Under the pieces are notes generated by a model. The model was not told the origin of the DNA and did no database searches. It saw only the letters and a program-made list of their open reading frames with translations. From NCBI GenBank assembly GCA_049303575.1, contig JBAQNH010000002.1, forward strand, positions 316,541-380,540: a stretch of 64,000 nt of DNA, in the 5' to 3' direction. The DNA is from Microgenomates group bacterium. GTDB lineage: Bacteria; Patescibacteriota; Microgenomatia; UBA1400; MFAQ01. Of the stretch, positions 8,085 to 46,908 are shown piece after piece. Every line of letters starts with the position of its first letter. The stretch's first letter is position 1. A program made the position numbers and the translations under genes.

Positions 8085-8615
8085 ATGGAATCAGAAAAAT
8101 GTCCCAAATGTGGCGCCCCCTTATCAGCAATAACCGAAACCCCAACCGGTCGTAAACTTCAACGTTGTTCGACTGGTGTCTGGAATACGGAAACTCACAA
8201 AACCGATGGTTGTGACTACGTTAAATGGCTTGAGGTAGAACCTCAAACTCTGGACGAAAAATGTCCCAAATGTGGTCAACCTCTCGTCCTCCAAGTTACT
8301 CGTTTCGGTAAAAAAATGAAAAAATGTAGTGCTGGTGGCTGGGACAAAGAAGCCAAGCAGGCTACTGGTTGCGATTATGTCGAATGGATTAATGGGACCA
8401 CCGAAAAGCTCGACGAAAAATGTCCCAAATGTGGCGAGCCTCTAGTTCTTTACACTACTGCCGCTGGTAAAAAAATGAAAAAATGTTCCACCTCTGGCTG
8501 GGACAGAGAAGAGAAAAAAGCCACCGGCTGCGACTATGTTCTTTGGCTTAAAACCGAGTACAAACCTCAAGAGTCAAATGGCGAAGAATTTCTTCCCCCT
8601 GAAGACATCTTTTAA
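8085..8615 (+). CDS. Tandem (3x) topoisomerase-type C4 zinc-ribbon repeat protein
   Basis: It has three repeats of about 52 aa, each of the form CPKCG(A/Q/E)PL...(RFGKKMKK)C(S)..GW....GCDYV.W. This resembles the zf-C4_Topoisom ribbons of TopA. Confidence 0.5.
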   Translation: MESEKCPKCGAPLSAITETPTGRKLQRCSTGVWNTETHKTDGCDYVKWLEVEPQTLDEKCPKCGQPLVLQVTRFGKKMKKCSAGGWDKEAKQATGCDYVEWINGTTEKLDEKCPKCGEPLVLYTTAAGKKMKKCSTSGWDREEKKATGCDYVLWLKTEYKPQESNGEEFLPPEDIF

Positions 8616-34462: not shown

Positions 34463-34879
34463 TTAAGTATTATTTTGAACTTTCTCAATCTTAAATTTGT
34501 GCCCATTTAATTCATACTCGAAGCCTACTTCTTTTCCTATAATAATTTTTGAAAGTGGGGTGTCTTCGCTTATCAGGGTAATTCCATCAATCGTTATTCC
34601 TCCTAAGCCATCTGGGACAATAAAAAATCTATATCTTGTGCCATTACTGAGATTAAGAAGGTCATAGATGGTCTGAAACTCTCCAATTCTTCTCTTTAAT
34701 TGCTGAATACTCCTTTTCTCCTCCAGCAAGCTGTTATAGAGCTGGTTGGCAACTTGCCTTGTCTGGTCATGTTGAGACTCCATTGGAGTGGCACTATTAT
34801 CACGTTCAAAGGCAACATGTTTAATGCTGTTTTCTACAGATTCAATTTTCTCGTTTAGGATGCTGGACAAGTCAATCAC
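34463..34879 (-). CDS. GreA/GreB-family transcript cleavage factor paralog (divergent N-terminus)
   Basis: It has a C-terminal FKBP-like Gre domain (RFFIVPDGLGGITIDGITLISEDTPLSKIIIGKEVGFEYEL) preceded by a coiled coil. Confidence 0.55.
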   Translation of the reverse strand: MIDLSSILNEKIESVENSIKHVAFERDNSATPMESQHDQTRQVANQLYNSLLEEKRSIQQLKRRIGEFQTIYDLLNLSNGTRYRFFIVPDGLGGITIDGITLISEDTPLSKIIIGKEVGFEYELNGHKFKIEKVQNNT

Positions 34880-34896
34880 AAAGTTAAATTATACAG

Positions 34897-35182
34897 TGGC
34901 TCACCACTCAGTAGAATTGCCTCGCGGTTTGCCAACTGCTTGCCGGCAGTATTACGGTCGCGCGAGACGAATTTTGTATCCCGCCTGCGGGCGGGATGAT
35001 TTGCCTTCGGCAAAGTGCCAACTTCGCATTCAGCGATTGTGGCGAAGCTCTCTCAATATATGGCTCGTTTCACAATCTCGCCATATAAATATCAACTAGT
35101 TAGGAGAGTATTTTACTATCTAACATTTAATGGTTGAGATATCATTGTCCTGACGGCAAAAATGCCTGCTTCTCAGGCACAA
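34897..35182 (+). repeat. Structured repeat copy A (modules Y+Z, long form, + orientation)
   Basis: It is about 90% identical to 38475-38791. It contains atcccgcc-UGCG-ggcgggat and uugcc-UUCG-ggcaa tetraloop hairpins and a terminal ugccug-cuucu-caggca hairpin. Confidence 0.75.
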
Positions 35183-35223
35183 TGAACACAGGTTTAAATT
35201 AAGAACTATTAATGTTAATATAA

Positions 35224-35862
35224 ATGCATATGGAAGAATCCACTGAGGGTATTGAACTAAATGATAAAAAATCTACTACGTCTGTCGAGAAGACAAGGAC
35301 AAGATGGGAAGAACTTAGTATTGGTGCCAAAAAAAGTCTAGACAAGTTGTTTAAGCTTGGAGAGTATAAAGAAATATCATTAGCTGAGGCTATTGGACGT
35401 ATTGATAAAGCTCCTTCAATTATTGAAGACAAAGGAGTGAGTGTTTTTGGTCATGAAGTCGAAGACCCCCTAGCCTTTACGGTGAAATATTTGCAAGAAT
35501 CAATGAAAATACTGACAAAAAAAGAAGGTGATAGTGTAAATTGCGGTAGATTGTACGAAGTGCTTGGAGATATTTTTGCAAAAGATACATCCCATGACGA
35601 AAAAGTAGATAGGCGCGAGTGGGATGAATTTATAATCGCACAATATGACGAAGCGATGCGAATATACAATGGGGCAGGAGATACAAGAAGATATTGGGAT
35701 GTTGACCTAAAGAATAATGTAATTAAGGGTGGCGTAGAAGATGTTGTTCTATCGAATGGGGAACACTATGGCTACAGGAAAGACTTACTTAATATGTTTG
35801 CTGAGGAGAGAAGAAAAAGAAGAGAAGAAGATCATAATATGCATCGAAATAAGAGCGTATAA
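35224..35862 (+). CDS. Hypothetical protein (212 aa), first gene of two-gene island operon
   Basis: ORF only. Its stop lies 8 bp before the next start. Confidence 0.35.
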   Translation: MHMEESTEGIELNDKKSTTSVEKTRTRWEELSIGAKKSLDKLFKLGEYKEISLAEAIGRIDKAPSIIEDKGVSVFGHEVEDPLAFTVKYLQESMKILTKKEGDSVNCGRLYEVLGDIFAKDTSHDEKVDRREWDEFIIAQYDEAMRIYNGAGDTRRYWDVDLKNNVIKGGVEDVVLSNGEHYGYRKDLLNMFAEERRKRREEDHNMHRNKSV

Positions 35863-35869
35863 ATGAGGT

Positions 35870-37600
35870 ATGGATGATGCAGTGGGAGGTTTTGAGATAG
35901 AAACAACAGATAATAATACTCCAAAAGCGGAAGCGGTGGAGAAACAAACTTCGAAAATTGAGGTGAAAGACGGTCGTGGAGAAAAAGCCGATGTAATACA
36001 AACGGCAGAATTCAAAACAAAACTTGAAAATGATAAAGTTGAAGAAAAGCTGACACAGTTTGAAAATTTAGTAGGAAAATACACAAAACAAAAGGTTTCG
36101 GAAGGATTTAAAATCAATGTCGTTTATGGTTCTGCCGGAAATGGAGAGGTGGTAGATGGAGTTCTTTCAGTGAATTTACCAACTCAAAACGAAATAGACA
36201 TTGTTCAAAATGATGAGAGAGCAAAACCATTTTTGGATGTACTGACAAAAGCGGGTACAACGTATAAGGAATTTTCATTGGCACTAGCTTCTTCAACGAC
36301 GATACACGAATCAGAACATATGATTATTGACAGTAGACCAAATTCACAACTAGCAAGGGATTTTGAAAGTGCTCAACCTCTTGATCAAAAAATTATTCTC
36401 GATGAAGCAGGCCACGCGTTGTCGCTTCTTGATGAAGGAATTACATACGCATTTCAAATGGAAATAGATAGTGGAAGCGAATTATTCCAGAAACTGGAGG
36501 GGGATAAACCACCGTCAGAGGAAAGTTTTACAATATCAACCAGAAAACGACTGGGTGAGATTCTCAGGCCAAAATTGAAAGAGTATATCGATAATGGAAA
36601 CGATATAGATGGAGATTTTTTAAAGTTTGCGGGTGAGGAGATGAAGAAACTGGGTATCGAAAAATATGTAGCGGAAGCGGAAAACGAGAGAAGAGAGAAA
36701 ATGGTTTGGAGGGAGGCAGAACCAGTGCTAAATGATTGGGAAGGCAGATTGGCGTCATATGAAGAAAAACACCGCACACAGATATCTAAATCATTAGGCA
36801 TTATGGCTCATCTATTTGGAAAAAATACTCCGGAAAAAATCAACGTCGACCTTCATTACTTGGCAAGAAGAGACAGCTCGAAAGGTGAACCTGTTTCTAA
36901 CTTAGTTGACAACAATCTATTAGCAAAAAATGATACAGACGTTATTTACTGGCTTGGTAAGGTCACTCGATTATCTAGTGATGGTCCAGAACAAATTGAG
37001 GAAGAAGAAAGAAGACAAACAGCAAAAATAATACATGAAATGATTCATCAGGATTTTCAAAGTGAAAACAGTGTATTTAAAGACGTGTTGAATGAGTCAA
37101 ACAATAATCCGGAGATTATTGAATTAAGGAAAGAACTTATGTCGGGTCAAGCCAACTATCTTGAACCAGAAGCTGAACTTACAGCCATCTATCTGGAACA
37201 ATACGCAGATAAAATTTTAAAGGAAGAAACTTCTAATGATGGAACATCCACAAGTCAACAAATAATTGACTATCGGTTAGATAATGATAGGTTTCAAGAA
37301 ATTTTCAATGCGGTTATAGAAGCAGATGACGCAGAAAAGTGGAAAGATGGCGGTCCGTATAGAAGCACACATGATGGTTGGAAAGGTTTATATACAGAAA
37401 AAAATGAAAACATCGTTTCTACGGCTCCAGAAGCTAGTAATCAACCTCGACCTCCTCACGAGCTTTCAATCTACGAGCTAGGAACAAAAATAACCGATTT
37501 TTCTCTAATCGAAAAGTATGTTATAGAAGGAAAACAGATGGATTTACTCTTTGTAAAGGAACTGTACAAACTGTTTTTAGCTCAAAAAAATACTAGGTGA
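35870..37600 (+). CDS. Hypothetical acidic protein with two HExxH motifs (possible duplicated metallopeptidase-like fold)
   Basis: 576 aa with TIHESEHMIID (around residue 146) and IIHEMIHQDF (around residue 390). No signal peptide is present. Confidence 0.4.
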   Translation: MDDAVGGFEIETTDNNTPKAEAVEKQTSKIEVKDGRGEKADVIQTAEFKTKLENDKVEEKLTQFENLVGKYTKQKVSEGFKINVVYGSAGNGEVVDGVLSVNLPTQNEIDIVQNDERAKPFLDVLTKAGTTYKEFSLALASSTTIHESEHMIIDSRPNSQLARDFESAQPLDQKIILDEAGHALSLLDEGITYAFQMEIDSGSELFQKLEGDKPPSEESFTISTRKRLGEILRPKLKEYIDNGNDIDGDFLKFAGEEMKKLGIEKYVAEAENERREKMVWREAEPVLNDWEGRLASYEEKHRTQISKSLGIMAHLFGKNTPEKINVDLHYLARRDSSKGEPVSNLVDNNLLAKNDTDVIYWLGKVTRLSSDGPEQIEEEERRQTAKIIHEMIHQDFQSENSVFKDVLNESNNNPEIIELRKELMSGQANYLEPEAELTAIYLEQYADKILKEETSNDGTSTSQQIIDYRLDNDRFQEIFNAVIEADDAEKWKDGGPYRSTHDGWKGLYTEKNENIVSTAPEASNQPRPPHELSIYELGTKITDFSLIEKYVIEGKQMDLLFVKELYKLFLAQKNTR

Positions 37601-37658
37601 AGATACGTCTGACGAGTTCCCTAAATCCACTTAAGATAATAATATAAGATACATTAAG

Positions 37659-37837
37659 TTTTGCGTTTTCTTTTCATTTTCGTACGACTGCGGTAGTGCA
37701 TTCGAGCCGATGTGGAGTTTATCCGCCTTTGGCGGAGCAGGCAGTTGGCGAACCGCTAGGCCATTAGACCGAGCGGTGAGCCATTAAGTTAGTAATTCTG
37801 TTGGAAATAGGTCCGAACTTCGTTATAACACCTCACA
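37659..37837 (-). repeat. Structured repeat copy C (modules W+Y'+X', inverted orientation, ends at precise X terminus ...ttataacacctcaca)
   Basis: The reverse complement of 37738-37837 matches 38421-38520, the start of copy B. The 5' part (ttttgcgttttcttttc...tgcggtagtgc...ttcgagccgatg) matches 44930-44985. Confidence 0.7.
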
Positions 37838-37982
37838 TATTTTGTGACCCCCCAGGGTTGCTGGAATGGAACCACATTTGGGAAGAACTCAAATCGATCT
37901 ACCGCACGACTAGTCACCCTCAAACTCCAGCCCAATCTTACTACCAATAGGTTATGGAACTATCGATAAAACACAACACTTA

Positions 37983-38402
37983 TTAAACCTGATTAGTTCT
38001 GGTTAAGAAATCCAATAATCCTGCACTAACAAACTCTCTACACTCCTCACTATCAGTATTCTCATGAGTTTCTAACCACTTATCAAGCAATAGCCCCATT
38101 TCAGTAAACTGTCCGTCTACATCAATAACTTTAACTCTTGGATTTTCTGGAATATCAACCTCAACCCAAGTTTTTTTGTCAGTCTTGAAATCATAACTCC
38201 AATGTCCCCAGTTTCCTTGTTCGTTCATCCTGCCAAGTCCAATCTCTAATCCATTTGGGTAAACCAAAGAATATGCTTCATCAACAAACATAGATGGATC
38301 ATGTCCGGCAAGATTCAAATCGTATGTATTGTTGAATACGACTTTGATAACTTCAAACTCTCTCTTCTCCTTTACTGGTTCATTTTCACTCATAATAAAC
38401 AC
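37983..38402 (-). CDS. Hypothetical protein (139 aa) bracketed by inverted X termini
   Basis: Clean ORF with no motif. It lies within the 583-bp segment between X' (ending 37837) and X (starting 38421). Confidence 0.35.
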   Translation of the reverse strand: MFIMSENEPVKEKREFEVIKVVFNNTYDLNLAGHDPSMFVDEAYSLVYPNGLEIGLGRMNEQGNWGHWSYDFKTDKKTWVEVDIPENPRVKVIDVDGQFTEMGLLLDKWLETHENTDSEECREFVSAGLLDFLTRTNQV

Positions 38403-38420
38403 ATTGTATCACTAGTAATT

Positions 38421-38791
38421 GTGAGGTGTTATAACGAAGTTCGGACCTATTTCCGACAGAATTACTAACTTAATGGCTCACCGCTCGGCCTAACGGCCTC
38501 GCGGTTCGCCAACTGCCTGTCGGCAGTATTACGGTCGCGCGATACGAATTCTGTATCCCGCCTGCGGGCGGGATGATTTGCCTTCGGCAAAGTGCCAACT
38601 TCGTTGTCACATCTTTATGTTCGTCACAAGATCGCCTTGAGCGATTGTGACGAAGCTCTCTCAATTATGGCTCGTTTACCAATCTCGCCATATAAATATC
38701 AGCTAGTTAGGAGAGAATTTTACTATCTGATATTTTAGGATTGAGATAGCATTTGGCCTGTCGGCCAAAGTGCCTGCTTCGCAGGCACAAT
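38421..38791 (+). repeat. Structured repeat copy B (modules X+Y+Z, full long form, + orientation)
   Basis: It starts with tgtgaggtgttataacgaag. It contains the same UGCG and UUCG tetraloop hairpins as copy A, plus an extra ggcc-uaac-ggcc hairpin and a 24-nt insertion. Confidence 0.75.
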
Positions 38792-38907
38792 AAGACGTTA
38801 TTTGGGTACTCGTGATAATAAAAACACACTTTTTAATCTCTATTAACTGGTTAGATTCTTGGGCATTATATCCTTAACAATCCCGTTAGGGTAAAATAAG
38901 ACCAAAT

Positions 38908-39420
38908 ATGAAGAATAATTTGTTGATAAGTCTCCTTATGTGTTTGATGATATCCATCATACTTTTTGCTTATGCCCCAAAAATCTTGGCGGAAGAAACT
39001 TGTGTTGTTGAGCCAATTTCTTCATTTGATGACAGCTCGTCATGTAGATATACCTCGTATAGAGGGTCTGATGATAATTTTTATGAGTCTTGTTATCAAA
39101 AATATCTACTAAGAAAAAATGATTGGGAGATAAGGTGTTTTAGATATTGGGACGACAAAAACAAGATTACCCCAAGTACGAATCAAACACCAACGGTTGC
39201 ACCTGTAATTCAGAACACTCCTCCAGCAACCACTCCAAGTCCATCACCCATTAAAAAAATAATCAAGAAAATTATTACTCCTACCCCAACAGAAGAAATC
39301 GCAAGTAGTTCAGGATCAACATTTAATACCGCCACAGTTTCAGGAATAACAACATCAAAAAACGGGTTCTTGAGCTGGATATTGAAAATATTTAGAATAC
39401 TTAATATATTGAAGGATTAA
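38908..39420 (+). CDS. Hypothetical secreted protein with Cys-containing N-domain and Pro/Thr-rich linker
   Basis: A signal or TM segment is followed by a Cys-rich segment, then TPSTNQTPTVAPVIQNTPPATTPSPSP, then a hydrophobic C-terminus. Confidence 0.35.
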   Translation: MKNNLLISLLMCLMISIILFAYAPKILAEETCVVEPISSFDDSSSCRYTSYRGSDDNFYESCYQKYLLRKNDWEIRCFRYWDDKNKITPSTNQTPTVAPVIQNTPPATTPSPSPIKKIIKKIITPTPTEEIASSSGSTFNTATVSGITTSKNGFLSWILKIFRILNILKD

Positions 39421-39457
39421 AAATTGTATTCTCTCTAATTCATAATAATCTCCAACA

Positions 39458-40129
39458 CTACCTTATTTTTTCTTGCACTTGTTTACTCTTATCCTCAACC
39501 AAATATTTACCTAAATTACATTCTTGACACCGAGTTGCTAAATTGTCTACTGAATTACCCCCACCATCTTCTGGTCTGACAATGTGATCCATTGATAATA
39601 GTTTACCGTCTTTTGATCCTAAACCACAATCTACACACTTAAAGTTATCTCTTTTGAGCACCATATACCTAGTTGCTGGTCCAATCGATTTTCTAAATTC
39701 TCCCGCTTTAATTGCTTTTTTTAAATGGCTTAGGTCAATTCTTCCTCTTGATAGAGCTAATCTATGGGCTACTTGAACTGTTCTTAGTATACCTAACAGA
39801 CCAACGTACCTCTGGATACTTCGTACCGTGACTATTAGATCAAGCTTATCTTTAATCTCACTACAAGAATATCCATCTTGGTATAAATTTCTAATTTCGT
39901 TTTCATAAATTGATAATTTACTACTCCTAATTCTATTCTCTCTTGTCTTTACTGATGCTTTAGTACTTAACCCTTCATTCCTTTTCAGCTTCATTACCAG
40001 GGTTTTTTCTTTTAACCAATTCATAATTTTATGACTATATCTTAATGGATATTGTTTCCTTATTTCATACATGGGAATGCCCTCGCTGTATAGCTTCAAT
40101 ATCTCAAATTTATTTTCAGACCATTTCAT
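39458..40129 (-). CDS. HNH endonuclease with N-terminal HTH-like region
   Basis: The HNH motif is CVDCG...DHIVRPEDGGGNSVDNLATRCQECNLGK. Confidence 0.6.
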   Translation of the reverse strand: MKWSENKFEILKLYSEGIPMYEIRKQYPLRYSHKIMNWLKEKTLVMKLKRNEGLSTKASVKTRENRIRSSKLSIYENEIRNLYQDGYSCSEIKDKLDLIVTVRSIQRYVGLLGILRTVQVAHRLALSRGRIDLSHLKKAIKAGEFRKSIGPATRYMVLKRDNFKCVDCGLGSKDGKLLSMDHIVRPEDGGGNSVDNLATRCQECNLGKYLVEDKSKQVQEKIR

Positions 40130-40136
40130 TCGAATT

Positions 40137-40424
40137 CTATACTAATTGATTACTTAAAAGATAAGAGTATACAGAAGTACAAAAAGCAGCAAAATAACCA
40201 AAAGCTTGAACAACGTTTATTGTTCGATTCAATTTATTACTGTCATCTATATAAATTCCAAAATCTTCAACAAATTCACTCATCCCCATTTTTACTCCGT
40301 TAATAGTTTTTATTTCCCCCTTATTTTTTAGTTTAGGGATTTTTCTAGTAGCTTGATAAAAATGAAATATTGTCAACATCAAGAAGATAAAACTGAAGAC
40401 AATCCAAAGAAGCTGATTATTCAT
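40137..40424 (-). CDS. Hypothetical small membrane protein (95 aa, 2 TM)
   Basis: Hydrophobic segments lie at both ends. Confidence 0.3.
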   Translation of the reverse strand: MNNQLLWIVFSFIFLMLTIFHFYQATRKIPKLKNKGEIKTINGVKMGMSEFVEDFGIYIDDSNKLNRTINVVQAFGYFAAFCTSVYSYLLSNQLV

Positions 40425-40526
40425 ATCTTATGATACAACCTAGTGATAATAATCCCAGAACATTGCTTTGCTTTTGTATAAAATCAAAAAATCAAAATGT
40501 TTTATCAATAGACTATAATTTGATTA

Positions 40527-41390
40527 ATGGAAACTGAAAAATCACCCAAGAGAAGTTTGAGAAAGATATTTCGAAATGTGTGGTTATATTCTTTAATTCT
40601 CTTCATCGTTGGGTTAATAGGATTTAGATTTTTGGGATGGGAAGCTGGTTTTAGTAGAACAGCAACCATCGTAATTATGGGTGCATCAGCTTTGGTTGGT
40701 GGAATATCTTTTTTGACATGGATTTCAATCCTAATCTTCTCAAATAAATTTTCTCGAATCATCATAATACTATTGGGGATTTTTATATCATCTTTATACG
40801 CTTTAACCATATATTCAGTCACTTATATTTTTGTCTACAGCCGTGTATCTCAAGGAAGTATGGATACACTGGTTGATCTTCAATATATTCTTCCATTACT
40901 CATTTTTGGTCTCACCTTAGGTGTTTGGTTGAAAACAAAGCCGTTATTGATAAAAGGAATCGTTATCGCTGGGTTATTGGTCACATACTTAGCGGGAAGA
41001 AATTATGCAGTCGAGGCATATAAACCTCTTACCCAAGCCTTTAATTTTATTGACCGGGCTAATTCTACTGAAGGGTTGGCTTGGACAAATGAACCCGATG
41101 ATAATAAGTATTTGGAAGGAGAAAGAAAATACGTAGCTTTATACAAGCAAGCTTCCGAATCAATTAAAAATGATGTTTTTCGCTCTTGGCCAAGACAATA
41201 TTTTAACGATCTCTACCGAGTAGAAAAGAAAGTTTTAGATTATGATGAACAGCTCTTTACAGGGAAATTGAAAATCTCTCAAGAAGAAATAGATAAAATC
41301 ACAGCAGAAGTCATGAAAGAAAGAAGTGATATTCTTGCTTCGGGGTTTTCAACTCCATATTGGACTGAGTTCTTCATGGTTGTTAAATAG
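40527..41390 (+). CDS. Hypothetical polytopic membrane protein (287 aa)
   Basis: It has 5 or more predicted TM helices in the N-terminal two-thirds, followed by a soluble C-terminus. Confidence 0.35.
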   Translation: METEKSPKRSLRKIFRNVWLYSLILFIVGLIGFRFLGWEAGFSRTATIVIMGASALVGGISFLTWISILIFSNKFSRIIIILLGIFISSLYALTIYSVTYIFVYSRVSQGSMDTLVDLQYILPLLIFGLTLGVWLKTKPLLIKGIVIAGLLVTYLAGRNYAVEAYKPLTQAFNFIDRANSTEGLAWTNEPDDNKYLEGERKYVALYKQASESIKNDVFRSWPRQYFNDLYRVEKKVLDYDEQLFTGKLKISQEEIDKITAEVMKERSDILASGFSTPYWTEFFMVVK

Positions 41391-41453
41391 TTATTCCCCA
41401 CGAGTGGGGTTATACAAATTACATTTTTTTCTTTAAATCATAATAATACTTAT

Positions 41454-42026
41454 ATGACTAAGTCAATGAAATATTTATTAGTCTCACTAATAGTAATTAC
41501 CGCATTCTGTGTTTTATTCAACAGACAATCAAAAAAAGTTCTTATCTCCAATACAACTTCTAATCTTGCAAAAACGTCTGTAGATGAAAAGACGGCTTGT
41601 TCTGATGTTATTGCCAAGTATGCAACAGAAAGTGGAATACCAAAATATTCAGGAGATATAAAACAGATCAATTTCAATTCTTTGCCAGAAGCAAAATTAT
41701 TTAAGACTACAATCACCAATTCGTACAAAGAAGGCGCAAACTTTGCCGGGCACTATAATTTATCATTGTGGGGATGCGGAACTGATTGTTTTGGAATGTC
41801 AATTACTGATGTAGAAACGGGGAACATAATAGAATATTCACCTATACATGAAGGCTATCATCTAGATGGCTATAACGTCGATAATCGCTTAATAGTATTC
41901 AATCCCATTAATGCGGGAATGGAAAGAAAAATATACAAATTATCCGAATCGAGCAATAAGACTAACGCTCTTGAACTAATATGTTCGGAAATATCTCAGA
42001 ACGACATGTATCAATATCCTGAATAA
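41454..42026 (+). CDS. Hypothetical secreted/signal-anchored protein (190 aa)
   Basis: The N-terminus has a signal-like hydrophobic segment. The rest is unassigned. Confidence 0.35.
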   Translation: MTKSMKYLLVSLIVITAFCVLFNRQSKKVLISNTTSNLAKTSVDEKTACSDVIAKYATESGIPKYSGDIKQINFNSLPEAKLFKTTITNSYKEGANFAGHYNLSLWGCGTDCFGMSITDVETGNIIEYSPIHEGYHLDGYNVDNRLIVFNPINAGMERKIYKLSESSNKTNALELICSEISQNDMYQYPE

Positions 42027-42041
42027 TAATTAGCATATTTA

Positions 42042-42509
42042 TTGGTAATGAATAATCGAACTATAAAAAACATGAAACTAACTGAAGTTAAAAGCTGGAT
42101 TTTTAATAAATGCAAAAAAAATAGTGCGGCTATTAAAAAGATAACTTTGGGTCAATGGATAATAATTGCCTTATTGCTTTTAATATTATGGCAATTAATC
42201 GACGCTCCTATTTTTAGAATGCATTTCATTAAAAGAAGCTATATATTTGAAAAAAATAAAGGTGAATGTATCCTCAATTATGGATCACAGACATGCAGTG
42301 TGTCGTTTTATACTCGACCAAGTATATTTATCGTAATTACAAAACATGAAGGGGACGTCATTTTTGCAAAAAGCATTAATTTTTTAGGGAAATCTGTATT
42401 TAAAGACGGGACAGCCTATTGTCTCACTATACCGAAACCCAATTTCGTCACAGGATGTCGTTACAACGGAATAATATATAAGTTTGTTGACGTCAACGAA
42501 GAGAAATAA
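42042..42509 (+). CDS. Hypothetical membrane-anchored protein (155 aa)
   Basis: It has a single TM (WIIIALLLLILWQLI). Confidence 0.3.
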   Translation: MVMNNRTIKNMKLTEVKSWIFNKCKKNSAAIKKITLGQWIIIALLLLILWQLIDAPIFRMHFIKRSYIFEKNKGECILNYGSQTCSVSFYTRPSIFIVITKHEGDVIFAKSINFLGKSVFKDGTAYCLTIPKPNFVTGCRYNGIIYKFVDVNEEK

Positions 42510-42572
42510 ACTGAAAAACAAAAGAGTGAAAAAAGACGCAATCATATGCTTACAAATTTATAATCATGAAAT

Positions 42573-44915
42573 GTGAAACTGAAGAAAATCAAAAAAATCA
42601 AAGTTTACAAATCATTCCAAGATTTTTCTTGGCAACCTTTTTTAAATAATGAAACATTTCATGATGAAGTAAATATTATTTATGGCGAAAACGGAAGTGG
42701 CAAAAGCTCAATAGCCAATCTGTTAAAAAATGTTTCGGAAAATAAAGATTTTGGTAAATACAAACCAATCGAAGCGTGTTTAGTCTTTGATGACGGTGAA
42801 AAAAAATATCCAGTAAACAACGACTGGGATAATAAAATCCCAAAAGGTTCTATTTTGTTTTTTGATCATGAATTTGTTGACAAAAATGTTCATATGGGGA
42901 GTAGGCGAGATACAACACAAAACGGACAAGAACAGGAATCAGGCAAAATGATTATTGAGTTTGATAGCAACGCTATAAATTTGCGCGGTGTACGAGACGT
43001 TGCGAAAAAAGCGAAAGAGGAACAAGACCAGAAGATTAAAGATTTCAATTCAGCAAATAAGGATTACTTGTTCAATATTTTGACTGATGATGAAAAACTA
43101 TATTATCAAAACTATAAGGATAATACCGAAGATGAAATCAAAAAAGTAAAACAAGACTTGGAAAAAGAGAAAAGGGAAGCAGGAAAAAATTTTGAAATTG
43201 ATCAAGGCCTACAGAAGAAAGTCACGAGCATTCAGAGCGGAATAAAAAGTTTGCCGACAGAAGAAGTTGAAATCTCTCTTTCAGATATTGAAACCTATCA
43301 GAAAATTTTTGATTTTGATCTAAAGGAGCGGGCATCAATAAAGGCCGAACAAGATTTGATTGATAAAGTCAAAACGCACAAAATATTTTTTGAAACTGGT
43401 TTTGAAATCAGAAAAACACATCAAAACCGATGCCCTTTTTGTCAATCCGAAAACGAAGAAGCGGGGATTAAGAAAATTGTTGATTTGTTCAAGCAAATTT
43501 ATGACACGACATATAAAACACAGGCACAACAATTTGAAAAAGATAAACAAACCCTACTTGGTGAAATTTCACAAATTACGAAATCAGTCTCCGATTTTGA
43601 TTTGAATAATATTTTTCTAGAACTTAAAAAATTGGATCAAAACTATAAGATACCATATATCTACTCTGTTGAAGACGAAGAAATATACAAAAAGCCAGCT
43701 GTGAAAGAGATAAAAGATTTGAGCGATAAAATATCAAAACTTACAAAGCCAGACAAAGAGAACATCAAAGATCTTTATACAAAAGTAAAAACTGAATTTA
43801 AGGTAATTGAAGCGTTTTTCAAGGCAATTGGTGATTTCGTAGAACAAAGGAACAATCTAATTGTTAAATTCAAATCTGACAATACTGACGAAAAGCTTCA
43901 AGCACGAATTGCCACAAGCAGTAAAAGAATTGCTGAAGTTGAAAAAGTGTTGGTTTTTATCAATGGGAACAAGATAAAAGAGCAACAAAAGAAAGTGCAG
44001 AAAGAAAAGGAACTGAAAGTGATGCAAGATGTTTTAGCTACGTTAAAAATAGAATACGAAACGGCATTGAAAAATTATGAGGAACATTGCTCAACAAAAG
44101 CCTTTTCAAATCTATTGTCCAAAATTCAAGATTATTTCAAGAATTTCAATTTCAGTTTTAAGCTTAAATTGAAAACAGACCCAACAGGTAACAAAACCGA
44201 ATTTCCTTTTGCTTTCAAAGTTTTGGATTTTGAGGGCAACGAACGGGATTTTAATGAGGGGCTTTCTGAAGGGGAGATTCAGGTTTTGTCCCTTTGCTTT
44301 TTCTTTGCTTTTCTTGATATACAAAAAGAAAAAGATCAAAAAATACTTATTTTTGATGACCCAATCACGAGCTTGGATAGTAGCAATTTGAGCTATCTTG
44401 TTGATTTAATTTCAGAAGAACAAAATAACTTTTCACAAATATTTGTTTTTACCCACCACAGAACCTTTTTCAAATTTTTAAGAAAACGATTCGGACAACA
44501 AAAAATTGGGTGCAAGGAATTTAATGTCATTAGGAACAGAAAGGAGTTAGGCGGAAGCTTTTTATGTAAAAGTCATCAAACAGACTTTATGCCGTTGCTT
44601 AGAAATTTTGAAAGTGATTTGAGAAGTTGGTCTCCTTTAGATATAGAATTAAAAATAGTTGAGTACGGCCAGTATTTAAGATATGAGGTTGAAAAGTTCA
44701 TTAAGAACGAGCTGCTTCATATAAATGAAACAAAATTTGAAGATATTGTAGACGGAGTAAAAAACAACCAAAACATTAATGTTATAGATTTAGAAAAAAT
44801 TAAAGAAATATACTTATTTTGCAATTGGACAACTTCGCATGTCGATGTTGGTGATGATCATGGTCTTGATCAACTGAAAACTAAAATAATCGACTTTGTA
44901 TCCATAATTAATTAA
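42573..44915 (+). CDS. RloC/AAA_13-like Rad50-type ABC ATPase with coiled-coil CxxC zinc hook and C-terminal extra domain (candidate anticodon-nuclease/defense protein)
   Basis: It has a PrrC/RloC-like Walker A (IIYGENGSGKSSIANLL) and a long coiled coil containing HQNRCPFCQSE (CxxC hook). The ABC signature LSEGEIQ, Walker B ILIFDDP, D-loop SLD and H-loop FTHH follow. About 180 aa remain C-terminal of these motifs. Confidence 0.5.
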   Translation: MKLKKIKKIKVYKSFQDFSWQPFLNNETFHDEVNIIYGENGSGKSSIANLLKNVSENKDFGKYKPIEACLVFDDGEKKYPVNNDWDNKIPKGSILFFDHEFVDKNVHMGSRRDTTQNGQEQESGKMIIEFDSNAINLRGVRDVAKKAKEEQDQKIKDFNSANKDYLFNILTDDEKLYYQNYKDNTEDEIKKVKQDLEKEKREAGKNFEIDQGLQKKVTSIQSGIKSLPTEEVEISLSDIETYQKIFDFDLKERASIKAEQDLIDKVKTHKIFFETGFEIRKTHQNRCPFCQSENEEAGIKKIVDLFKQIYDTTYKTQAQQFEKDKQTLLGEISQITKSVSDFDLNNIFLELKKLDQNYKIPYIYSVEDEEIYKKPAVKEIKDLSDKISKLTKPDKENIKDLYTKVKTEFKVIEAFFKAIGDFVEQRNNLIVKFKSDNTDEKLQARIATSSKRIAEVEKVLVFINGNKIKEQQKKVQKEKELKVMQDVLATLKIEYETALKNYEEHCSTKAFSNLLSKIQDYFKNFNFSFKLKLKTDPTGNKTEFPFAFKVLDFEGNERDFNEGLSEGEIQVLSLCFFFAFLDIQKEKDQKILIFDDPITSLDSSNLSYLVDLISEEQNNFSQIFVFTHHRTFFKFLRKRFGQQKIGCKEFNVIRNRKELGGSFLCKSHQTDFMPLLRNFESDLRSWSPLDIELKIVEYGQYLRYEVEKFIKNELLHINETKFEDIVDGVKNNQNINVIDLEKIKEIYLFCNWTTSHVDVGDDHGLDQLKTKIIDFVSIIN

Positions 44916-44929
44916 CCCATAATAATTAA

Positions 44930-45210
44930 TTTTGCGTTTTCTTTTCTTTTTGCACTACTGCGGTAGTGCCGTTCGAGCCGATGTTTCGGCAGTTGTTGGC
45001 GAACCGCGAGGCCGACAGGCCGAGCGGTGAGCCAATTAAGTTAGCAATTCTGTTGGAAATAGGTCCGAACTTCGTTATAACACCTCACACTCAGAGAGTT
45101 TTCGCTCTCGTCAGGGTACATCGCCCGTGCGCCCGCCCTCGCACGGAGCGATGTGAAGGGCTTTTAAGTTGTATTACTATCAAAAAGAAAAAAGAAAAGA
45201 AAACGCAAAA
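44930..45210 (-). repeat. Structured repeat copy D (W+Y'+X' inverted) fused to an 80-bp inverted copy of the tRNA-Glu 3' trailer, bounded by 17-bp inverted repeats
   Basis: Bases 44930-45089 match copy C and are the reverse complement of the copy B start. Bases 45086-45165 are the reverse complement of 46691-46770. ttttgcgttttcttttc at 44930-44946 is the reverse complement of 45194-45210. Confidence 0.7.
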
Positions 45211-45276
45211 CGGGGGACAATTCCAGTTTGTCTTGGCTGTACTCTTTCGGGAAATATATGGTTAAATGAATGTAAG

Positions 45277-46908
45277 GTGAAATACATTTTGTATTGTCGA
45301 AAGAGTACCGATGAAAAAGACAAACAGGTCTTGTCCATTGAAGCTCAGATTGCTGAGCTTACCGAGTTCGCCATAAGGGAAAGGCTTGAGATAGTCGCCA
45401 CTTTCTCCGAATCAAAAACAGCCAAGACTCCAGGCAGACCAATCTTCAAGGAGGTGCTAAAGAAAATCGAAAGTGACGAGGCCGACGCCATTCTTTCCTG
45501 GCACCCCGATAGGTTGGCCAGAAACAGCATTGATGGCGGTTACCTCATCTATCTTCTCGACACAGGGAAGCTCCTTGACCTCAAGTTTCCTTCCTTTTGG
45601 TTTGATAACACTCCGCAAGGAAAGTTCATGCTCAACCTCGCTTTCGGTCAATCCAAATACTATGTCGATAATCTCTCGGAGAATGTTAAGCGTGGTCTTC
45701 GCCAAAAGATTAGGAATGGCGTCTGGCCTTCCCAAGCCCCTTATGGCTACTTGAATAATAAAATTACTCGGGGTATTGAAATCGATCCGGAAAAAAGCAA
45801 AGTCGTGAAAAAAGCCTTCGAAATCTTTGCAAAAGAAAAAGTTTCCTTCTCCGATGTTTCACTTCTTCTTGCCAAAGGCGGTATTCATAAAAGAAGTGGC
45901 AAACCAGTTGGTATCAGTCAAGTCCATAAAATGCTCACCAATCAGTTTTACATCGGCATCATGTCATATAACGGGGAATTTTTCGAAGGCAAACACGACC
46001 AATTCATCACTCGCCAACTCTTTAATAAGGTAAAGAGAAGACTAGAAGAAAAAGGCAACTCCAATTTCAAGTTTCGTGATTATGCTTTTTCCGGTCTCAT
46101 GCGTTGTGGGGAGTGTGGCGCGACTATTACGGCCGAAACTCACACCAAGCATTACAAAAACGGCACTCACCAAAAATTCGTGTATTACCGCTGTACCAAA
46201 AAGCTTAGACCTTGTTCACAACCATATTTACCAGAAGAAAAACTCAAAGATCAACTCCGAGGATTCATCTCCCTCGCCACACTCCCCAAACGCTGGGGGA
46301 ACGACTGGCTCAAGTGGTTGGAAAAAGACAAAGTCACGGGGCGGCAATCTGCAGATTCATTTTTTGAAAGATACAAACTAGATATACAAACCATTGATGG
46401 CAAACTCAACCTCTTACTTGATAGCTATCTTGATGGCACAATCAACTCTCAAACATACAAAGGCAAAAAGAACCAGCTCTTTACCGAGAAACAAAATCTA
46501 GAAGACAAGATAGCCAAAACAAAAGCAAAGGGAAGCAGTTGGCTCGAACCCATGACAGAATTCGTCTTTTGCGCTATACGAGCGCAAAAAATCGCGCGAC
46601 CGAATACTGCTAGCGAAGATCTGCGGATCTTCGCCAAAAACATCGGCTCGAACTTCTTTTTGAAAGATAAACAACTTACATGGGAGATGAAAAAGCCCTT
46701 CGCATCGCTCCGTGCGAGGGCGGGCGCACGGGCGATGTACCCTGACGAGAGCGAAAACTCTCTGAGTGTGATCCCGGCGGGAGTCGAACCCGCGATCTTT
46801 TGGATGAGAACCAAATGTCCTAGACCACTAGACGACGGGACCATGTCTGAACCTGTATATTGTACCAAATTAGTGCGCCAATTTGACTTGATAGGTTCAA
46901 AAGTGTAA
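45277..46908 (+). CDS. Large serine recombinase (resolvase-domain + recombinase-domain + zinc ribbon + coiled coil); 3' end reads antisense through tRNA-Glu
   Basis: The catalytic N-terminus is KYILYCRKSTDEKDKQVLSIEAQ (the YxRVSTxxQ-type motif with the Ser nucleophile). A recombinase domain and a zinc ribbon (CGECGATITAETH...YYRCTK) follow. The start is uncertain, either GTG at 45277 or TTG at 45289 after an AGGTGA. The ORF has no stop until 46908. Confidence 0.7.
   Translation: MKYILYCRKSTDEKDKQVLSIEAQIAELTEFAIRERLEIVATFSESKTAKTPGRPIFKEVLKKIESDEADAILSWHPDRLARNSIDGGYLIYLLDTGKLLDLKFPSFWFDNTPQGKFMLNLAFGQSKYYVDNLSENVKRGLRQKIRNGVWPSQAPYGYLNNKITRGIEIDPEKSKVVKKAFEIFAKEKVSFSDVSLLLAKGGIHKRSGKPVGISQVHKMLTNQFYIGIMSYNGEFFEGKHDQFITRQLFNKVKRRLEEKGNSNFKFRDYAFSGLMRCGECGATITAETHTKHYKNGTHQKFVYYRCTKKLRPCSQPYLPEEKLKDQLRGFISLATLPKRWGNDWLKWLEKDKVTGRQSADSFFERYKLDIQTIDGKLNLLLDSYLDGTINSQTYKGKKNQLFTEKQNLEDKIAKTKAKGSSWLEPMTEFVFCAIRAQKIARPNTASEDLRIFAKNIGSNFFLKDKQLTWEMKKPFASLRARAGARAMYPDESENSLSVIPAGVEPAIFWMRTKCPRPLDDGTMSEPVYCTKLVRQFDLIGSKV
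46691..46768 (-). repeat. Native 3' trailer of tRNA-Glu (copy E), inverted partner of 45086-45165
   Basis: It contains the hairpins gagag-uuuucg-cucuc and ccgugcg-cccgcccu-cgcacgg. It is 68 nt identical to the upstream inverted copy. Confidence 0.7.
46769..46842 (-). tRNA. tRNA-Glu (anticodon CUC)
   Basis: Manual cloverleaf: acceptor GGUCCCG/CGGGAUC with one G-U pair. D-arm is GUCU-AGUGGUCUA-GGAC. Anticodon stem is UUUGG/CCAAA with loop UUCUCAU. T-arm is GCGGG-UUCGACU-CCCGC. Length is 74 nt, no CCA is encoded, and it resembles E. coli tRNA-Glu. Confidence 0.8.

Follow-up and report, generated by a model that had tools for sequence, protein, structure and literature searches.

The window, a 64,000-nucleotide stretch of DNA from a Microgenomates group bacterium, holds two similar non-coding sequences, A and B, and they raise the question of what they are and on which strand they act. 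A first-pass annotation had taken them for a candidate structured RNA read from the + strand, possibly an element-encoded guide or structural RNA or the folded form of a recombination site. We found that A and B are the long arms at one end of small mobile elements that carry a large serine recombinase (LSR) in bacteria of the candidate phyla radiation (CPR). Judged from sequence comparison, they appear to form a previously undescribed, heavily folded non-coding module of 300-450 bases. The reading that we favour, tentatively and with somewhat less than an even chance of being right, is that the arms of these LSR-moved elements act as RNAs and, together with a split open reading frame (ORF), regulate the recombinase according to integration state.

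Two long arms at the ends of serine recombinase elements

A repeat search recovered A and B (38474-38791) as direct copies that are 87-91% identical, at the places where they had first been reported. They align in four collinear blocks: 34897-35026/38474-38603 (91% identity), 35019-35057/38627-38665 (87%), 35059-35146/38666-38753 (89%) and 35145-35183/38753-38791 (87%). About 30 bases of B (~38597-38627) are absent from A, where they were lost between two TTCG repeats. The predicted minimum free energy of B is -134.3 kcal/mol against -94.3 in dinucleotide shuffles (z -7.5), and A reaches a z of -4.5 against such shuffles. A matched the family in nhmmer with an E of 1e-67 and carries more mismatches than any other member; its P1 hairpin is degenerate and the 55-nt head that precedes P1 in B is missing. 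Further partial copies, C1 and C2, lie on the opposite strand and have only the first ~100 nt in common with the long arms. Coordinates of all features are collected in Table 1, with A and B in the orientation of the first-pass annotation; the structured strand is probably the - strand.

Table 1. Features of the two elements in the window.
Feature	Position	Strand	Basis or remark
Copy A, long arm of older LSR-less relic element (element 1)	34897-35183	+	repeat search, fold, nhmmer
Two cargo ORFs (212 and 576 aa) of relic element 1	35224-37600	+	unmatched in Pfam and PADLOC
Copy C1, short arm of relic element 1	37650-37837	-	inverted relative to A
Head: attP P' half-site and displaced last 15 LSR codons	38420-38474	+	coding analysis
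Putative attL crossover TGTGA	38420-38424	+	shared junction sequence
P1, 16-bp hairpin with two 2x2 internal loops	38474-38513	+	fold and family alignment
Copy B body	38514-38791	+	fold and family alignment
Cargo of element 2	38908-44915		GC 0.31-0.34
Copy C2, short arm, directly upstream of LSR gene	44925-45089	-	inverted relative to B
H, upstream arm of 81-nt inverted repeat bracketing LSR gene	45085-45165	+	sequence repeat
'Tail' motif AAAAGAAAAGAAAACGCAAAA	45189-45210	+	complementary to short arm outer end (44930-44952)
Large serine recombinase gene	45277-46908	+	Resolvase, Recombinase and Zn_ribbon_recom domains
H', downstream arm of inverted repeat	46691-46771	+	codes LSR C-terminal region
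tRNA-Glu(CUC), integration target	46768-46842	-	tRNA searches

Element 2 (38420-46771) carries cargo and an LSR and sits immediately 3' of tRNA-Glu. The head, P1 and the long arm come first, then the variable cargo, then the short arm with its own P1 and an inverted head, and lastly H, the LSR gene and H', which abuts the tRNA. The short arm has its first 100 nt in common with the long arm in inverted orientation and adjoins the LSR gene, whose product has SPbeta integrase as its best solved relative. The crossover falls immediately 3' of the tRNA-Glu discriminator base, and TGTGA is common to attL, attR (46767-46771, where H' ends) and an internal attP copy (45085-45089); H and the head of C2 together make up an intact inverted attP copy. 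C2 is divided into body (44925-44994), P1 (44995-45034) and head (45035-45089), and C1 into head (37783-37837), P1 (37743-37783) and a short body with 'tail' reaching to ~37650. The two tail copies co-vary between lineages. Both H and H' look terminator-like when read toward the LSR, H as a GC hairpin with GGGCUUUU behind it, and H' is terminator-like on the opposite strand, just downstream of the tRNA. The cargo of element 2 includes an HNH protein (39458-40129, - strand) and an AAA_13 / PDC-S06-like candidate defence ATPase (42573-44915, + strand). A look-up of the 576-aa cargo protein of the relic returned only a 2.8-kb contig, broken inside repeats.

The head is an att half-site and the displaced end of the recombinase gene

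The interval first annotated as one RNA (38421-38791) is a composite: its larger part folds, and its first 55 nt are att site and displaced coding sequence. This head lies outside the RNA-like fold. It reads gtg agg tgt tat aac ... tac TAA, with the stop at 38466-38468, and encodes a conserved peptide, VRCYNE(V/I)RTYF.., in which differences between lineages are synonymous; 15 of 18 head variants have a stop codon (TAA, TAG or TGA) just ahead of P1. The LSR reading frame runs across attP and in the unintegrated form stops 15 codons on, 7 nt before P1. Integration therefore shifts the 55-nt head, with the long arm behind it, to the far end of the element. The integrated ORF reads through H' and the tRNA (543 aa), and the reconstructed unintegrated ORF has 512 aa.

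An LSR att site was taken to be an imperfect inverted repeat of ~40-50 bp around a short core common to attP, attB, attL and attR. Only 38420-~38445 answers to this description, and the arm body does not. The half-site motifs CGAA(A)CTTC / GAAGTTCG are symmetric about TGTGA in the window or GTGAGGT at other loci. A folded recombination site, as first suggested, is right for the first ~25 nt (the attP P' half-site) and wrong for the next ~30 nt, which are the end of the LSR frame. No circular, unintegrated copy was seen. One locus, L079, was considered as a circular element on the grounds that it begins and ends at att junctions, but it carries host flank and is integrated.

The same layout, running from the tRNA through H', the LSR and H to head, P1 and short arm, and further on to the long arm with its P1 and head, was found with the tRNA present in the window and at L001, L009 and L014, and on contigs that end before the tRNA side at L003, L005, L079, L081, L094 and L117. 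At L065, L090 and L106 the isomer is swapped, and the long arm stands upstream of the LSR. Beside LSRs of other CPR lineages that are 58-60% identical, the same inverted repeat of 80-103 nt abuts tRNA-Leu, Gln or Glu, and the upstream short-arm domain is also present, with 18 of 58 pairs compensatory. A miniature long arm with P1, a hairpin, a GCGCGCG motif and the helix GUAUCCCGAC/GUCGGGAUG stands at attL of L175, and long arms at L040 and L006 lie near LSR-like genes that are only 26-37% identical. Wherever the contig reaches, a serine recombinase gene, or conserved flank remnants of such a gene, can be found no more than a few kb from the homologue, which agrees with the neighbourhood check proposed at the outset.

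A family of covarying arms

The family comprises at least 32 distinct homologues of 284-450 nt in Candidatus Collierbacteria genomes and metagenomes, and the 32 distinct long arms analysed were drawn from 16 genome loci and ~25 metagenome loci. Paired cells amount to 93.2% among these 32 sequences. Pairs with both sides changed number 36, against 20.5 +/- 2.2 in shuffles (0/500 reach 36) and 9-15 in slid controls, and the covariation score is 0.130 versus 0.065. Fold z-scores range from -6 to -14 across the family. The proposal of a structured, conserved and covarying non-coding element, with further homologues named as its test, survived both the family alignment and the fold z-scores. The exchange of C-G in A for U-A in B proved to be a genuine covarying pair (family columns 369/397: CG 21, UA 6).

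Searches in databases gave no relatives of known kind. No Rfam 15 family other than tRNAs passed its gathering score in the window and 16 related loci, and E-value mode on 34700-39000 and on a 447-nt copy from L010 returned chance-level matches (E 0.1-10) far under gathering scores. The arms match neither RNase P, tmRNA and SRP, as judged at the outset, nor 6S, GOLLD, ROOL, HEARO, OLE, self-cleaving ribozymes and other Rfam families. ARAGORN detected no tRNA- or tmRNA-like folds in the arms. Two patterns run against IMG/VR gave 0 matches and 34 chance matches respectively, none of the latter upheld by nhmmer, and no similarity was found in GenBank phages or PLSDB plasmids.

In copy B, P1 is followed by P2, the invariant 8-nt palindrome UCGCGCGA in an unpaired stretch, the helix AUCCCGCC/GGCGGGAU, two small hairpins and helix 12. 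Next comes a three-way junction in which CUCUCAA/UUGAGA closes UAUGGC/GCCAUA and a covarying AUAUCAGCUAGU/ACUAUCUGAUAU hairpin, and the body ends with two terminal hairpins. Most hairpins that had been read from the two copies are present, namely AUCCCGCC-UGCG-GGCGGGAU (38556-38575), the rebuilt but retained stem, which is P2 (CUGCC-UGUC-GGCAG in B, CUGC-UUGCCG-GCAG in A), and the terminal hairpin, in the form GUGCCUGC-UUC-GCAGGCAC. The supposed tetraloop uugcc-UUCG-ggcaa is instead UUGCC-UUC-GGCAA, a triloop rather than c(UUCG)g. P1 is common to long and short arms; its internal loops are UC/UC on the given strand (that of the first-pass annotation) and GA/GA on the opposite strand. Its tip pair is A-U in 25 and C-G in 6 sequences, and L023 has a longer tip, an extension incompatible with a palindrome that binds protein as double-stranded DNA. 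Among homologues hairpins are inserted, extended or duplicated while the frame of helices remains unbroken. One candidate resemblance, of helix 6 (AUCCCGCC/GGCGGGAU) to the T-stem and acceptor of tRNA-Glu, was rejected because helix 6 becomes CCCGAC in other genomes while their tRNA-Glu keeps CCCGCC.

The arms might also be functionless, as inverted-repeat debris with hitch-hiking palindromic modules homogenised by gene conversion. Such an origin would suit the several copies per genome (five loci in MAG CAZENT01), the survival of relics such as A without an LSR and the visible duplication of internal modules, including the GGCAAAGUGCC..CUUCG that had been noted as occurring twice. It fits poorly with 36 pairs kept intact by compensatory changes, with unpaired motifs that are invariant across the 32 long-arm sequences and with a 5' core (P1, P2, CGCGCG motif and GUAUCCCG helix) that is kept where the LSR is only ~60% identical. 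The copies are moreover not scattered but stand at element ends wherever the contig reaches, and we give this explanation only the slimmest chance.

The opposite strand probably folds

Hairpins fold equally well on either strand and fold z-scores are identical on both, so the tetraloop 'sense' could not be read from two copies. A call by folding energy was discarded, as the reverse strand is ~15 kcal/mol more stable but for compositional reasons. Other features of the 32 homologues speak against the + strand as RNA sense. GNRA, GNYA and GNA loops number 114 on the opposite strand and 5 on the given one, where the loops are mostly UNNC/UNC, not a known stable motif. Unpaired bases on the reverse strand are A 31.5, U 27, G 26 and C 15%, which makes them C-rich and G-poor on the given strand, and wobble-compatible cells comprise 81 A.C (G.U on the reverse strand) versus 45 G.U on the given strand. 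The internal loops of P1, too, form tandem GA/GA when read on the reverse strand. The folded strand is thus probably, as far as these patterns tell, the one opposite to that first proposed.

The given sense might still be right if the long arm were a structured 3' UTR of the unintegrated LSR mRNA, a 5' leader of the cargo or both, which would serve to make the transcript more stable or to insulate the expression of the cargo from that of the recombinase. The LSR ORF is transcribed through the head in this sense, so that before integration at least P1 lies in the 3' region of the LSR mRNA, and with the stop codon so close to P1 transcription must reach the arm. The first cargo ORF is co-directional in 19/27 loci, in L004, L010 and L016 a TTGACA-N16-TATAAG close to consensus comes after the arm, the head contains a conserved TGTTATAAC (extended -10-like), and a c(UGCG)g loop of UNCG type is conserved on the given strand in 25/32 members. 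Besides the loops and base composition already described, the P1 internal loops would here be UC/UC mismatches, and 8/27 neighbouring cargo genes point the opposite way, on which ground an obligatory cargo leader was rejected. The terminal hairpins are without U-tracts although the same genomes use canonical terminators of hairpin and U-run: no U-run adjoins the terminal hairpins or P1 on either strand, the two sequences inside arms that were called 'terminator-like' on the + strand are weak in their tails (ATTTGCCTTC), and two - strand calls in the head (38456-38441) and in P1 of A (34908-34895) are equally weak. A module of 300-450 nt with a three-way junction and invariant unpaired motifs also exceeds what a stabiliser needs. 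We consider a given-sense UTR or leader unlikely, though with an appreciable chance of being right.

Few paired cells are G.U on either strand (1.4% and 2.4%). Together with the identical z-scores, this leaves the RNA-specific signature weak, and the constraint may instead act at DNA level or on both strands. The fold could form in single-stranded DNA, as hairpin arrays exposed on the lagging-strand template or in incoming DNA, and act as a priming or second-strand-origin signal (sso/ssi-like) or as a structure-specific accessory site of recombination. About 92% of helix pairs are Watson-Crick, wobbles being scarce whichever strand is read, and GNA triloops and GNNA tetraloops closed by C-G dominate, including the GCGAAGC core of the terminal hairpin. 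Such loops are classic extra-stable DNA mini-hairpins found at single-strand phage origins, and GNA triloops closed by C-G are commoner as stable hairpins of DNA than of RNA. Large serine recombinases, on the other hand, act on double-stranded sites. No replication protein is conserved in the elements, so an episomal phase would need a host-driven origin, and an RNA- or structure-based prophage origin has precedent (PMC7157519). Yet the genes conserved alongside the arms include no Rep, relaxase or primase, neither a circular nor a single-stranded form was seen, and the favoured strands of the two arms lie on opposite DNA strands, only one of which a transferred or rolling-circle strand would expose. 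A role in single-stranded DNA is quite unlikely in our estimate.

A possible sensor of integration state

Under our preferred reading, that of arm RNAs and a split ORF responding to integration, the folded strand would be the one read from cargo to att core (the - strand for A and B) and both arms would give rise to structured RNAs, with transcription heading for the LSR module. Until integration they would run into the hairpin and U-run of H or H', which would shield the recombinase gene on both sides. The arm upstream of the LSR would then resemble a leader RNA and the downstream arm would supply a convergent antisense RNA across the LSR 3' end. Integration would disconnect the downstream arm and alter the LSR C-terminus, and in this way arms and split ORF may sense integration state and set recombinase expression or activity. 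A -10-like TATAAT / CATAAT / TATA(A/G)G lies 5-12 nt beyond the outer end of the short arm and points toward the LSR. Beyond the outer end of the long arm there is no conserved promoter, conservation stopping abruptly past the terminal hairpin, and sigma-70 consensus scans around the arms gave nothing over shuffle expectation.

A more direct part for the RNAs can be envisaged. Arm RNAs might work with the recombinase in deciding between integration, excision or inversion, along with the swap of the C-terminus, which we regard as very unlikely. Each arm RNA would end in an attP half-site, placed in attP exactly where the tRNA sits in attB, in elements that encode no directionality protein. In a related reading, the arm RNA would be a trans-acting partner of the recombinase such as an RNA directionality factor or a synapsis scaffold. 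Between loci, conservation is confined to the LSR, the two arms and H; the cargo shares no homologues, and a conserved RDF protein is absent. The arms are kept beside LSRs of no more than 58-60% identity and near the diverged LSR-like genes of L040 and L006, a reverse-sense arm RNA would end with an attP half-site, and the unpaired palindrome could mediate RNA dimerisation. This support is purely associative, and the LSR has ordinary protein DNA-recognition domains. When arms were compared with the reconstructed attB target site for continuous matches, as opposed to split ones of 4-7 nt, the longest match was 8 nt, equalled or exceeded in 138/300 shuffles (46%); complementarity is not beyond chance, and the notion of a guide RNA was not supported. 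Literature searches found no RNA linked to serine integrases, no precedent for an RNA cofactor of a serine recombinase and no account of these CPR elements. A trans-acting partner RNA is highly improbable.

If the arms are RNAs, the CPR, a radiation that has received little study, would have yielded a new class of large structured RNAs (300-450 nt), and one tied to the att site of a serine integrase. Serine integrases are generally considered to require no more than protein and about 50 bp of DNA, and direct control by arm RNA, if true, would give such an enzyme its first known RNA cofactor or RNA-based control of directionality. Regardless of the RNA question, the analysis exposes a very large CPR clade of LSRs (>7000 relatives at E <= 1e-20) with an unusual design. 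Clade members examined have attP within their own reading frame, inverted att copies that bracket the gene and insertion at the first base past tRNA genes of several specificities. The split-frame att design suggests self-contained sensing of integration state. The clade may supply new, naturally retargetable integrases for genome engineering, and it offers a handle on how cassettes, including candidate defence genes, move between bacteria that apparently are without conjugation machinery.

Comparison with known systems

The elements share with SPbeta SprA, A118/LI, Bxb1 and the SCC CcrAB elements the recombinase of Resolvase, Recombinase and Zn-ribbon domains, a short pseudo-palindromic att site with a small shared core and a variable, defence-like cargo. 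Composite SCC islands hold LSR-containing and LSR-less cassettes in tandem at one chromosomal site, as here. They differ in that attP lies within the 3' end of the recombinase ORF, so that integration swaps the last 15 residues, that the gene is bracketed by an inverted repeat of 80-100 nt carrying a second, inverted attP, that insertion is aimed at the base next to a tRNA gene's 3' end, and that both att copies are flanked by non-coding sequence, conserved and folded, of 100-450 nt. We know of no characterised LSR element with a split-ORF attP, an inverted attP repeat, a tRNA-3' target or folded flanks.

An ORF interrupted by its own attachment site is familiar from mycobacteriophages BPs and Brujita, where integration-dependent immunity relies on attP inside the repressor gene, and from SSV-type archaeal integrases, which are split by integration. 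There as here, integration changes the C-terminus of a protein, which would provide the element with a built-in readout of its integration state. The gene affected in our elements is the serine recombinase itself, and upstream of it stands a second, inverted copy of the 3' end that integration removes. The Hin and Gin invertible segments similarly have a serine recombinase gene between inverted copies of its own site, with both orientations in nature. In the present case a large serine recombinase is involved, and the element that carries it is mobile and targets tRNA genes; any inversion may equally well occur by homologous recombination of the 180-bp repeats.

The RNA-like module in a non-coding end, beside recombinase gene and recombination site, recalls the bridge RNA or seekRNA of IS110/IS1111. 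The enzyme of IS110 is a DEDD/RuvC-like transposase, whereas the only conserved enzyme beside the arms is a large serine recombinase and no IS110-family DEDD recombinase was found there. The module is two to three times longer than bridge RNA, we found no target- or donor-complementary loops, and target choice is plausibly made by protein. Neither window element has a RuvC/TnpB-like ORF as expected for OMEGA RNA; the only HNH protein in them is a 223-aa lone HNH domain in variable cargo. An IntI tyrosine recombinase or HUH Y1 transposase, as in integron attC or IS200-IS605 systems, is likewise absent from the window elements and from the conserved parts of related loci. Finally, GOLLD, ROOL, HEARO/omega RNA and OLE resemble the arms in a length of several hundred nt, many helices, modular insertions, association with mobile DNA and tRNA loci, and a conserved unpaired palindromic motif, possibly for multimerisation. 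The arms differ from them in sequence and architecture, have no Rfam match and are strictly linked to an LSR att site.

Two elements bounded by related repeats

Repeat comparison within the window resolved copies A and B, the long arms, into four collinear blocks of 87-91% identity, in agreement with the first-pass annotation of two direct copies about 90% identical; roughly 30 bases present in B have been lost from A between two TTCG repeats. Most of the hairpins listed in that annotation are present as described, but its "UUCG tetraloop" is a UUC triloop, and its interval takes in 55 nt outside the fold by starting at 38421. Against dinucleotide shuffles, folding gave z scores of -7.5 (B) and -4.5 (A), and the reverse complements of both fold equally well. 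The short arms C1 and C2 have in common with B only these 55 nt (the head) and the adjoining 40-nt hairpin P1. Elsewhere in the window, two tandem copies of a 148-nt unit (8245-8551; 72% identical, spacing 159 nt) are unrelated to the arms.

Coordinates of features in the window and in sampled relative loci
Feature	Sequence	Positions	Strand	Description
Element 1	window	34897-37837		LSR-less
Copy A	window	34897-35183	+	Long arm, direct repeat collinear with B
C1	window	~37650-37837	opposite to A, B	Short arm, partial copy
Element 2	window	38420-46771		8.35 kb; B is its far end
Head	window	38420-38474		Segment before P1; LSR coding part 38420-38468
Copy B	window	38474-38791	+	Long arm, direct repeat collinear with A
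HNH protein	window	39458-40129		223 aa
AAA_13 ATPase	window	42573-44915
C2	window	~44925-45089	opposite to A, B	Short arm, partial copy
Upstream LSR 3' end	window	45035-45089		Spare inverted copy
H	window	45085-45165		81-nt inverted repeat arm upstream of the LSR gene
LSR gene	window	45277-46908		Resolvase, Recombinase and Zn-ribbon domains
H'	window	46691-46771		Other 81-nt arm; abuts 3' end of tRNA-Glu
tRNA-Glu	window	46768-46842	-
LSR 3' end against tRNA	L172	7396-7579		tRNA-Leu(UAA) at 3' arm of the LSR-bracketing inverted repeat (103 nt)
Second LSR gene	L172	1-1271		Against tRNA-Gly(UCC)
LSR 3' end against tRNA	L174	7422-7570		tRNA-Gln(CUG) at 3' arm of the LSR-bracketing inverted repeat (80 nt)
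LSR 3' end against tRNA	L175	7410-7568		tRNA-Glu(UUC) at 3' arm of the LSR-bracketing inverted repeat (89 nt)

The large serine recombinase (LSR), whose best solved relative is the SPbeta integrase, is encoded between H and H', which are 99% complementary and together bracket its gene. Over all loci mapped, the features follow one constant order: tRNA, H', LSR, H, head, P1, short arm, cargo, long arm, P1, head and host flank. We found the full order including the tRNA in the window and in the related loci L001, L009 and L014, the same order on contigs stopping short of the tRNA side (L003, L005, L079, L081, L094 and L117), and a swapped isomer, with the long arm adjoining the LSR 5' end, in L065, L090 and L106. 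The sequence TGTGA is common to 38420-38424, 45085-45089, 46767-46771 and the bases after the tRNA discriminator, and comparison of the junctions places the putative crossover within it. The predicted attP is an imperfect palindrome of ~40 bp about this core, with half-sites CGAA(A)CTTC and GAAGTTCG. Many other loci have, on the host side of the long arm, a hairpin with a T-run, which we take to be the former tRNA terminator. On this layout, the window holds two elements. The low-GC cargo (0.31-0.34) of element 2 includes an HNH protein and an AAA_13 ATPase matching both the PADLOC candidate defence family PDC-S06 (E 2e-32) and LmuB. Element 1 is an older relic; the head is missing from its long arm A, which has degenerated further than any other family member. 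No cargo protein had a homologue in another of the first 16 loci; a homologue of the HNH protein, 61% identical, is also cargo in L079.

Compensatory changes in a family of long arms

An exact-pattern scan of one genome per species yielded 16 loci. Two of these records are named Candidatus Collierbacteria and most others are MAGs deposited as "uncultured Pseudomonadales", a label that we take to be wrong because these MAGs carry the same elements. A metagenome scan added 120 loci, with about 25 true homologues by nhmmer. The search against Rfam, proposed in the first-pass annotation, returned no known family for the arms of the window or of related loci, and no similarity was found in IMG/VR, GenBank phages or PLSDB plasmids. 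Copies are of two types: long arms of 284-450 nt, every one ending in GUGCCUGC-UUC-GCAGGCAC, and short arms reaching 70-110 nt beyond P1.

We aligned 32 distinct long arms, took the consensus from per-sequence folds and counted pairs on it. Cells were paired in 93.2% of cases, against 88.5% after shuffling and 34-47% with slid partners, and the covariation score was 0.130 against 0.065 and 0.02-0.05, respectively. Changes on both sides affected 36 pairs, compared with 20.5 +/- 2.2 after shuffling (0/500 reached 36) and 9-15 with slid partners, bearing out the earlier claim of a structured element with compensatory stem changes. Stems are rewritten whole (e.g. AUAUCAGCUAGU/ACUAUCUGAUAU to AUACCCACUGAU/AUCAGUGGGUAU), and hairpins are inserted, duplicated or longer at their tips, as expected of a folded single strand but not of a protein-binding duplex palindrome. 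That the arms are non-functional repeats is an unlikely rival reading, and the two-sided changes speak against it. Invariant among the 32 are the unpaired motif UCGCGCGA, an 8-nt palindrome, as well as CUCUCAA/UUGAGA, which closes a three-way junction, UAUGGC/GCCAUA and a 14-nt apical loop. Although UCGCGCGA belonged to the metagenome search pattern, it is invariant too in the 16 long arms found without that pattern (14 from genome loci and the two window copies).

A GC-rich, RNA-like gene of ~95-105 nt adjoins long arms in L010 (2390-2484, minus strand), L012 (upstream of the long arm at 2547) and L008 (upstream of 864), each time with its own hairpin and U-run terminator. The gene has paired ends and internal hairpins that covary between L010 and L012, and it finishes in ..CCGCC(C)GGGGUCACA, like the tRNA-Glu 3' end; the counterpart stretch in the window (37846-37940, minus strand) has in common only the GGGGGGUCACAAAAUA end. 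Unrecognised by ARAGORN and Rfam, it may be a remnant of a tRNA, a second kind of target or some other small RNA.

The attachment site and the recombinase reading frame

Read in the LSR frame, the head translates as VRCYNE(V/I)R(T/N)YF(Q/R)..*, and the codons that differ from lineage to lineage show synonymous or conservative changes (CGG/CGA, ACC/ACT, TTC/TTT, GTT/ATT). Of 18 head variants, 15 have a stop codon (TAA, TAG or TGA) directly ahead of P1, its position varying by no more than one codon. When H' is joined to the upstream inverted copy, unintegrated ORFs of 512-514 aa are recovered in four lineages; integrated LSR ORFs run on into the tRNA (518-554 aa). The translation, the stop position and the reconstructed ORFs place attP inside the recombinase gene, at its 3' end, and integration replaces the last 15 residues of the enzyme. 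The head is conserved because it is LSR coding sequence, and RNA structure is not needed to explain it. Directly upstream of the gene lies a spare inverted copy of the LSR 3' end, from which the native end would be regained if the gene flipped between H and H'. Three of the four lineages have reconstructed ORFs with the ending ..SLSV(R/V/S)CY(N/D)E(V/I)RTYF..*, and L172 is more divergent.

More than 7000 LSR relatives were found at E <= 1e-20, many of them 56-60% identical and from Patescibacteria, including Woesebacteria. We examined three sampled loci, L172, L174 and L175, with LSRs 58-60% identical. Their tRNAs, at both LSR genes in L172, lie on the strand opposite to the LSR, with the crossover directly after the discriminator base. 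Measured from the core, a TCGAAC-like motif of the attP half-site lies ~4 nt farther out than the T-loop TCGAAC of the tRNA half-site, reminiscent of the difference in attP and attB spacing known for serine integrases. All three loci have a homologous short-arm domain upstream. Across ten aligned short-arm domains, compensatory change is seen in 18 of the 58 predicted pairs, among them pairs of a closing helix that joins the arm's outer end to a "tail" motif shortly upstream of the LSR promoter region. In the window (outer end 44930-44952, tail upstream of the LSR start 45189-45210) and at the same positions in L003, L005, L009, L014, L079, L094, L174 and L175, outer end and tail are inverted copies of 12-23 nt. 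The two change together by lineage (UUUUCUUUUC/GAAAAGAAAA, UUGGCGGUUC/GAACCGCCAA, UUUUCUGUC/GACAGAAAA), and their pairing closes a ~280-nt domain holding the inverted attP.

A miniature long arm at the attL of L175 combines P1 and a hairpin with a GCGCGCG motif and the helix GUAUCCCGAC/GUCGGGAUG. This makes the long arm's 5' core an old feature, and the three-way-junction domain of A and B may be a Collierbacteria elaboration. Long arms also adjoin LSR-like genes 26% (L040, 7285-8907, minus strand) and 37% (L006, 6880-7995, minus strand) identical to the window LSR; in L040 the head is read in a different frame, and the ORF stops within it (..HVGEVL*, stop in GTTATAAC). These cases suggest that recombinase lineages exchange arms, or that an element has inserted where the integrase gene of another one ends.

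Strand and nature of the folded molecule

Mean fold z was -9.6 on the given strand and -9.5 on the reverse, so folding energy cannot decide between them. Apical loops on the reverse strand comprise 15 GNRA, 54 GNYA and 45 GNA, against 5 of these types and 25 UGCG on the given strand. Unpaired bases of the reverse strand are A-rich and C-poor, resembling known structured RNAs; the two internal loops of P1 are tandem GA/GA on this strand and UC/UC on the other; and wobble-compatible changes number 81 cells against 45. These features favour the strand opposite to the + sense assigned in the first-pass annotation, and we consider it quite probable that the reverse strand is the one that folds. They also weigh against a rival in which the arm, read in the given sense, is a 3' UTR or a leader for the cargo. 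Two points call for caution about the reverse strand: LSR transcripts have to traverse the head in the given sense, and the sequence outside the long arm yielded no conserved promoter.

Short arms have a -10-like element (TATAAT, CATAAT or TATA(A/G)G) 5-12 nt outside their outer end, toward the LSR, and H and H' read in the LSR-ward direction are a hairpin with a U-run. On the other side, both strands have few wobble pairs (1.4% and 2.4%) and C-G-closed GNA triloops are hallmarks of stable DNA hairpins, as the rival of a single-stranded DNA hairpin array would have it. On balance we lean towards RNA as the folded molecule. The motif ACTATAGG(A/G)A recurs 5-12 nt before the short-arm outer boundary in L005, L014, L065, L094, L174 and others; it resembles a T7-type promoter initiation region as much as a sigma-70 -10 box, which may well be coincidence.

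A tentative mechanism and comparison with known systems

Building on the established anatomy, the covariation in long and short arms and the ORF-spanning att site, we tentatively propose a mechanism that, as a whole, links the arms to integration state. Both arms would be transcribed toward the LSR module; in the unintegrated form, one would give a leader-like RNA halting at H and the other a convergent antisense RNA halting at H'. Integration would move the convergent arm to the far end, where its RNA would end at the old tRNA terminator, and would also give the tRNA a new terminator (H' in antisense) and alter the LSR C-terminus. Arms, new terminator and changed LSR end would jointly make the expression or activity of the recombinase depend on whether the element is integrated. 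A trans-acting RNA cofactor is a less likely rival, in which the invariant palindrome could mediate dimerisation. The guide function raised in the first-pass annotation was not supported.

The structured arm is a new family. As far as we know and could find in the literature, four features are undescribed: the recombinase ORF contains attP, a second attP is present in inverted orientation, insertion takes place at the base directly following tRNA genes of several specificities, and conserved folded sequence of 100-450 nt flanks both att copies. The enzyme and the logic of integrating next to a gene are those of known serine-integrase elements, and the tandem LSR-containing and LSR-less cassettes resemble SCC islands.
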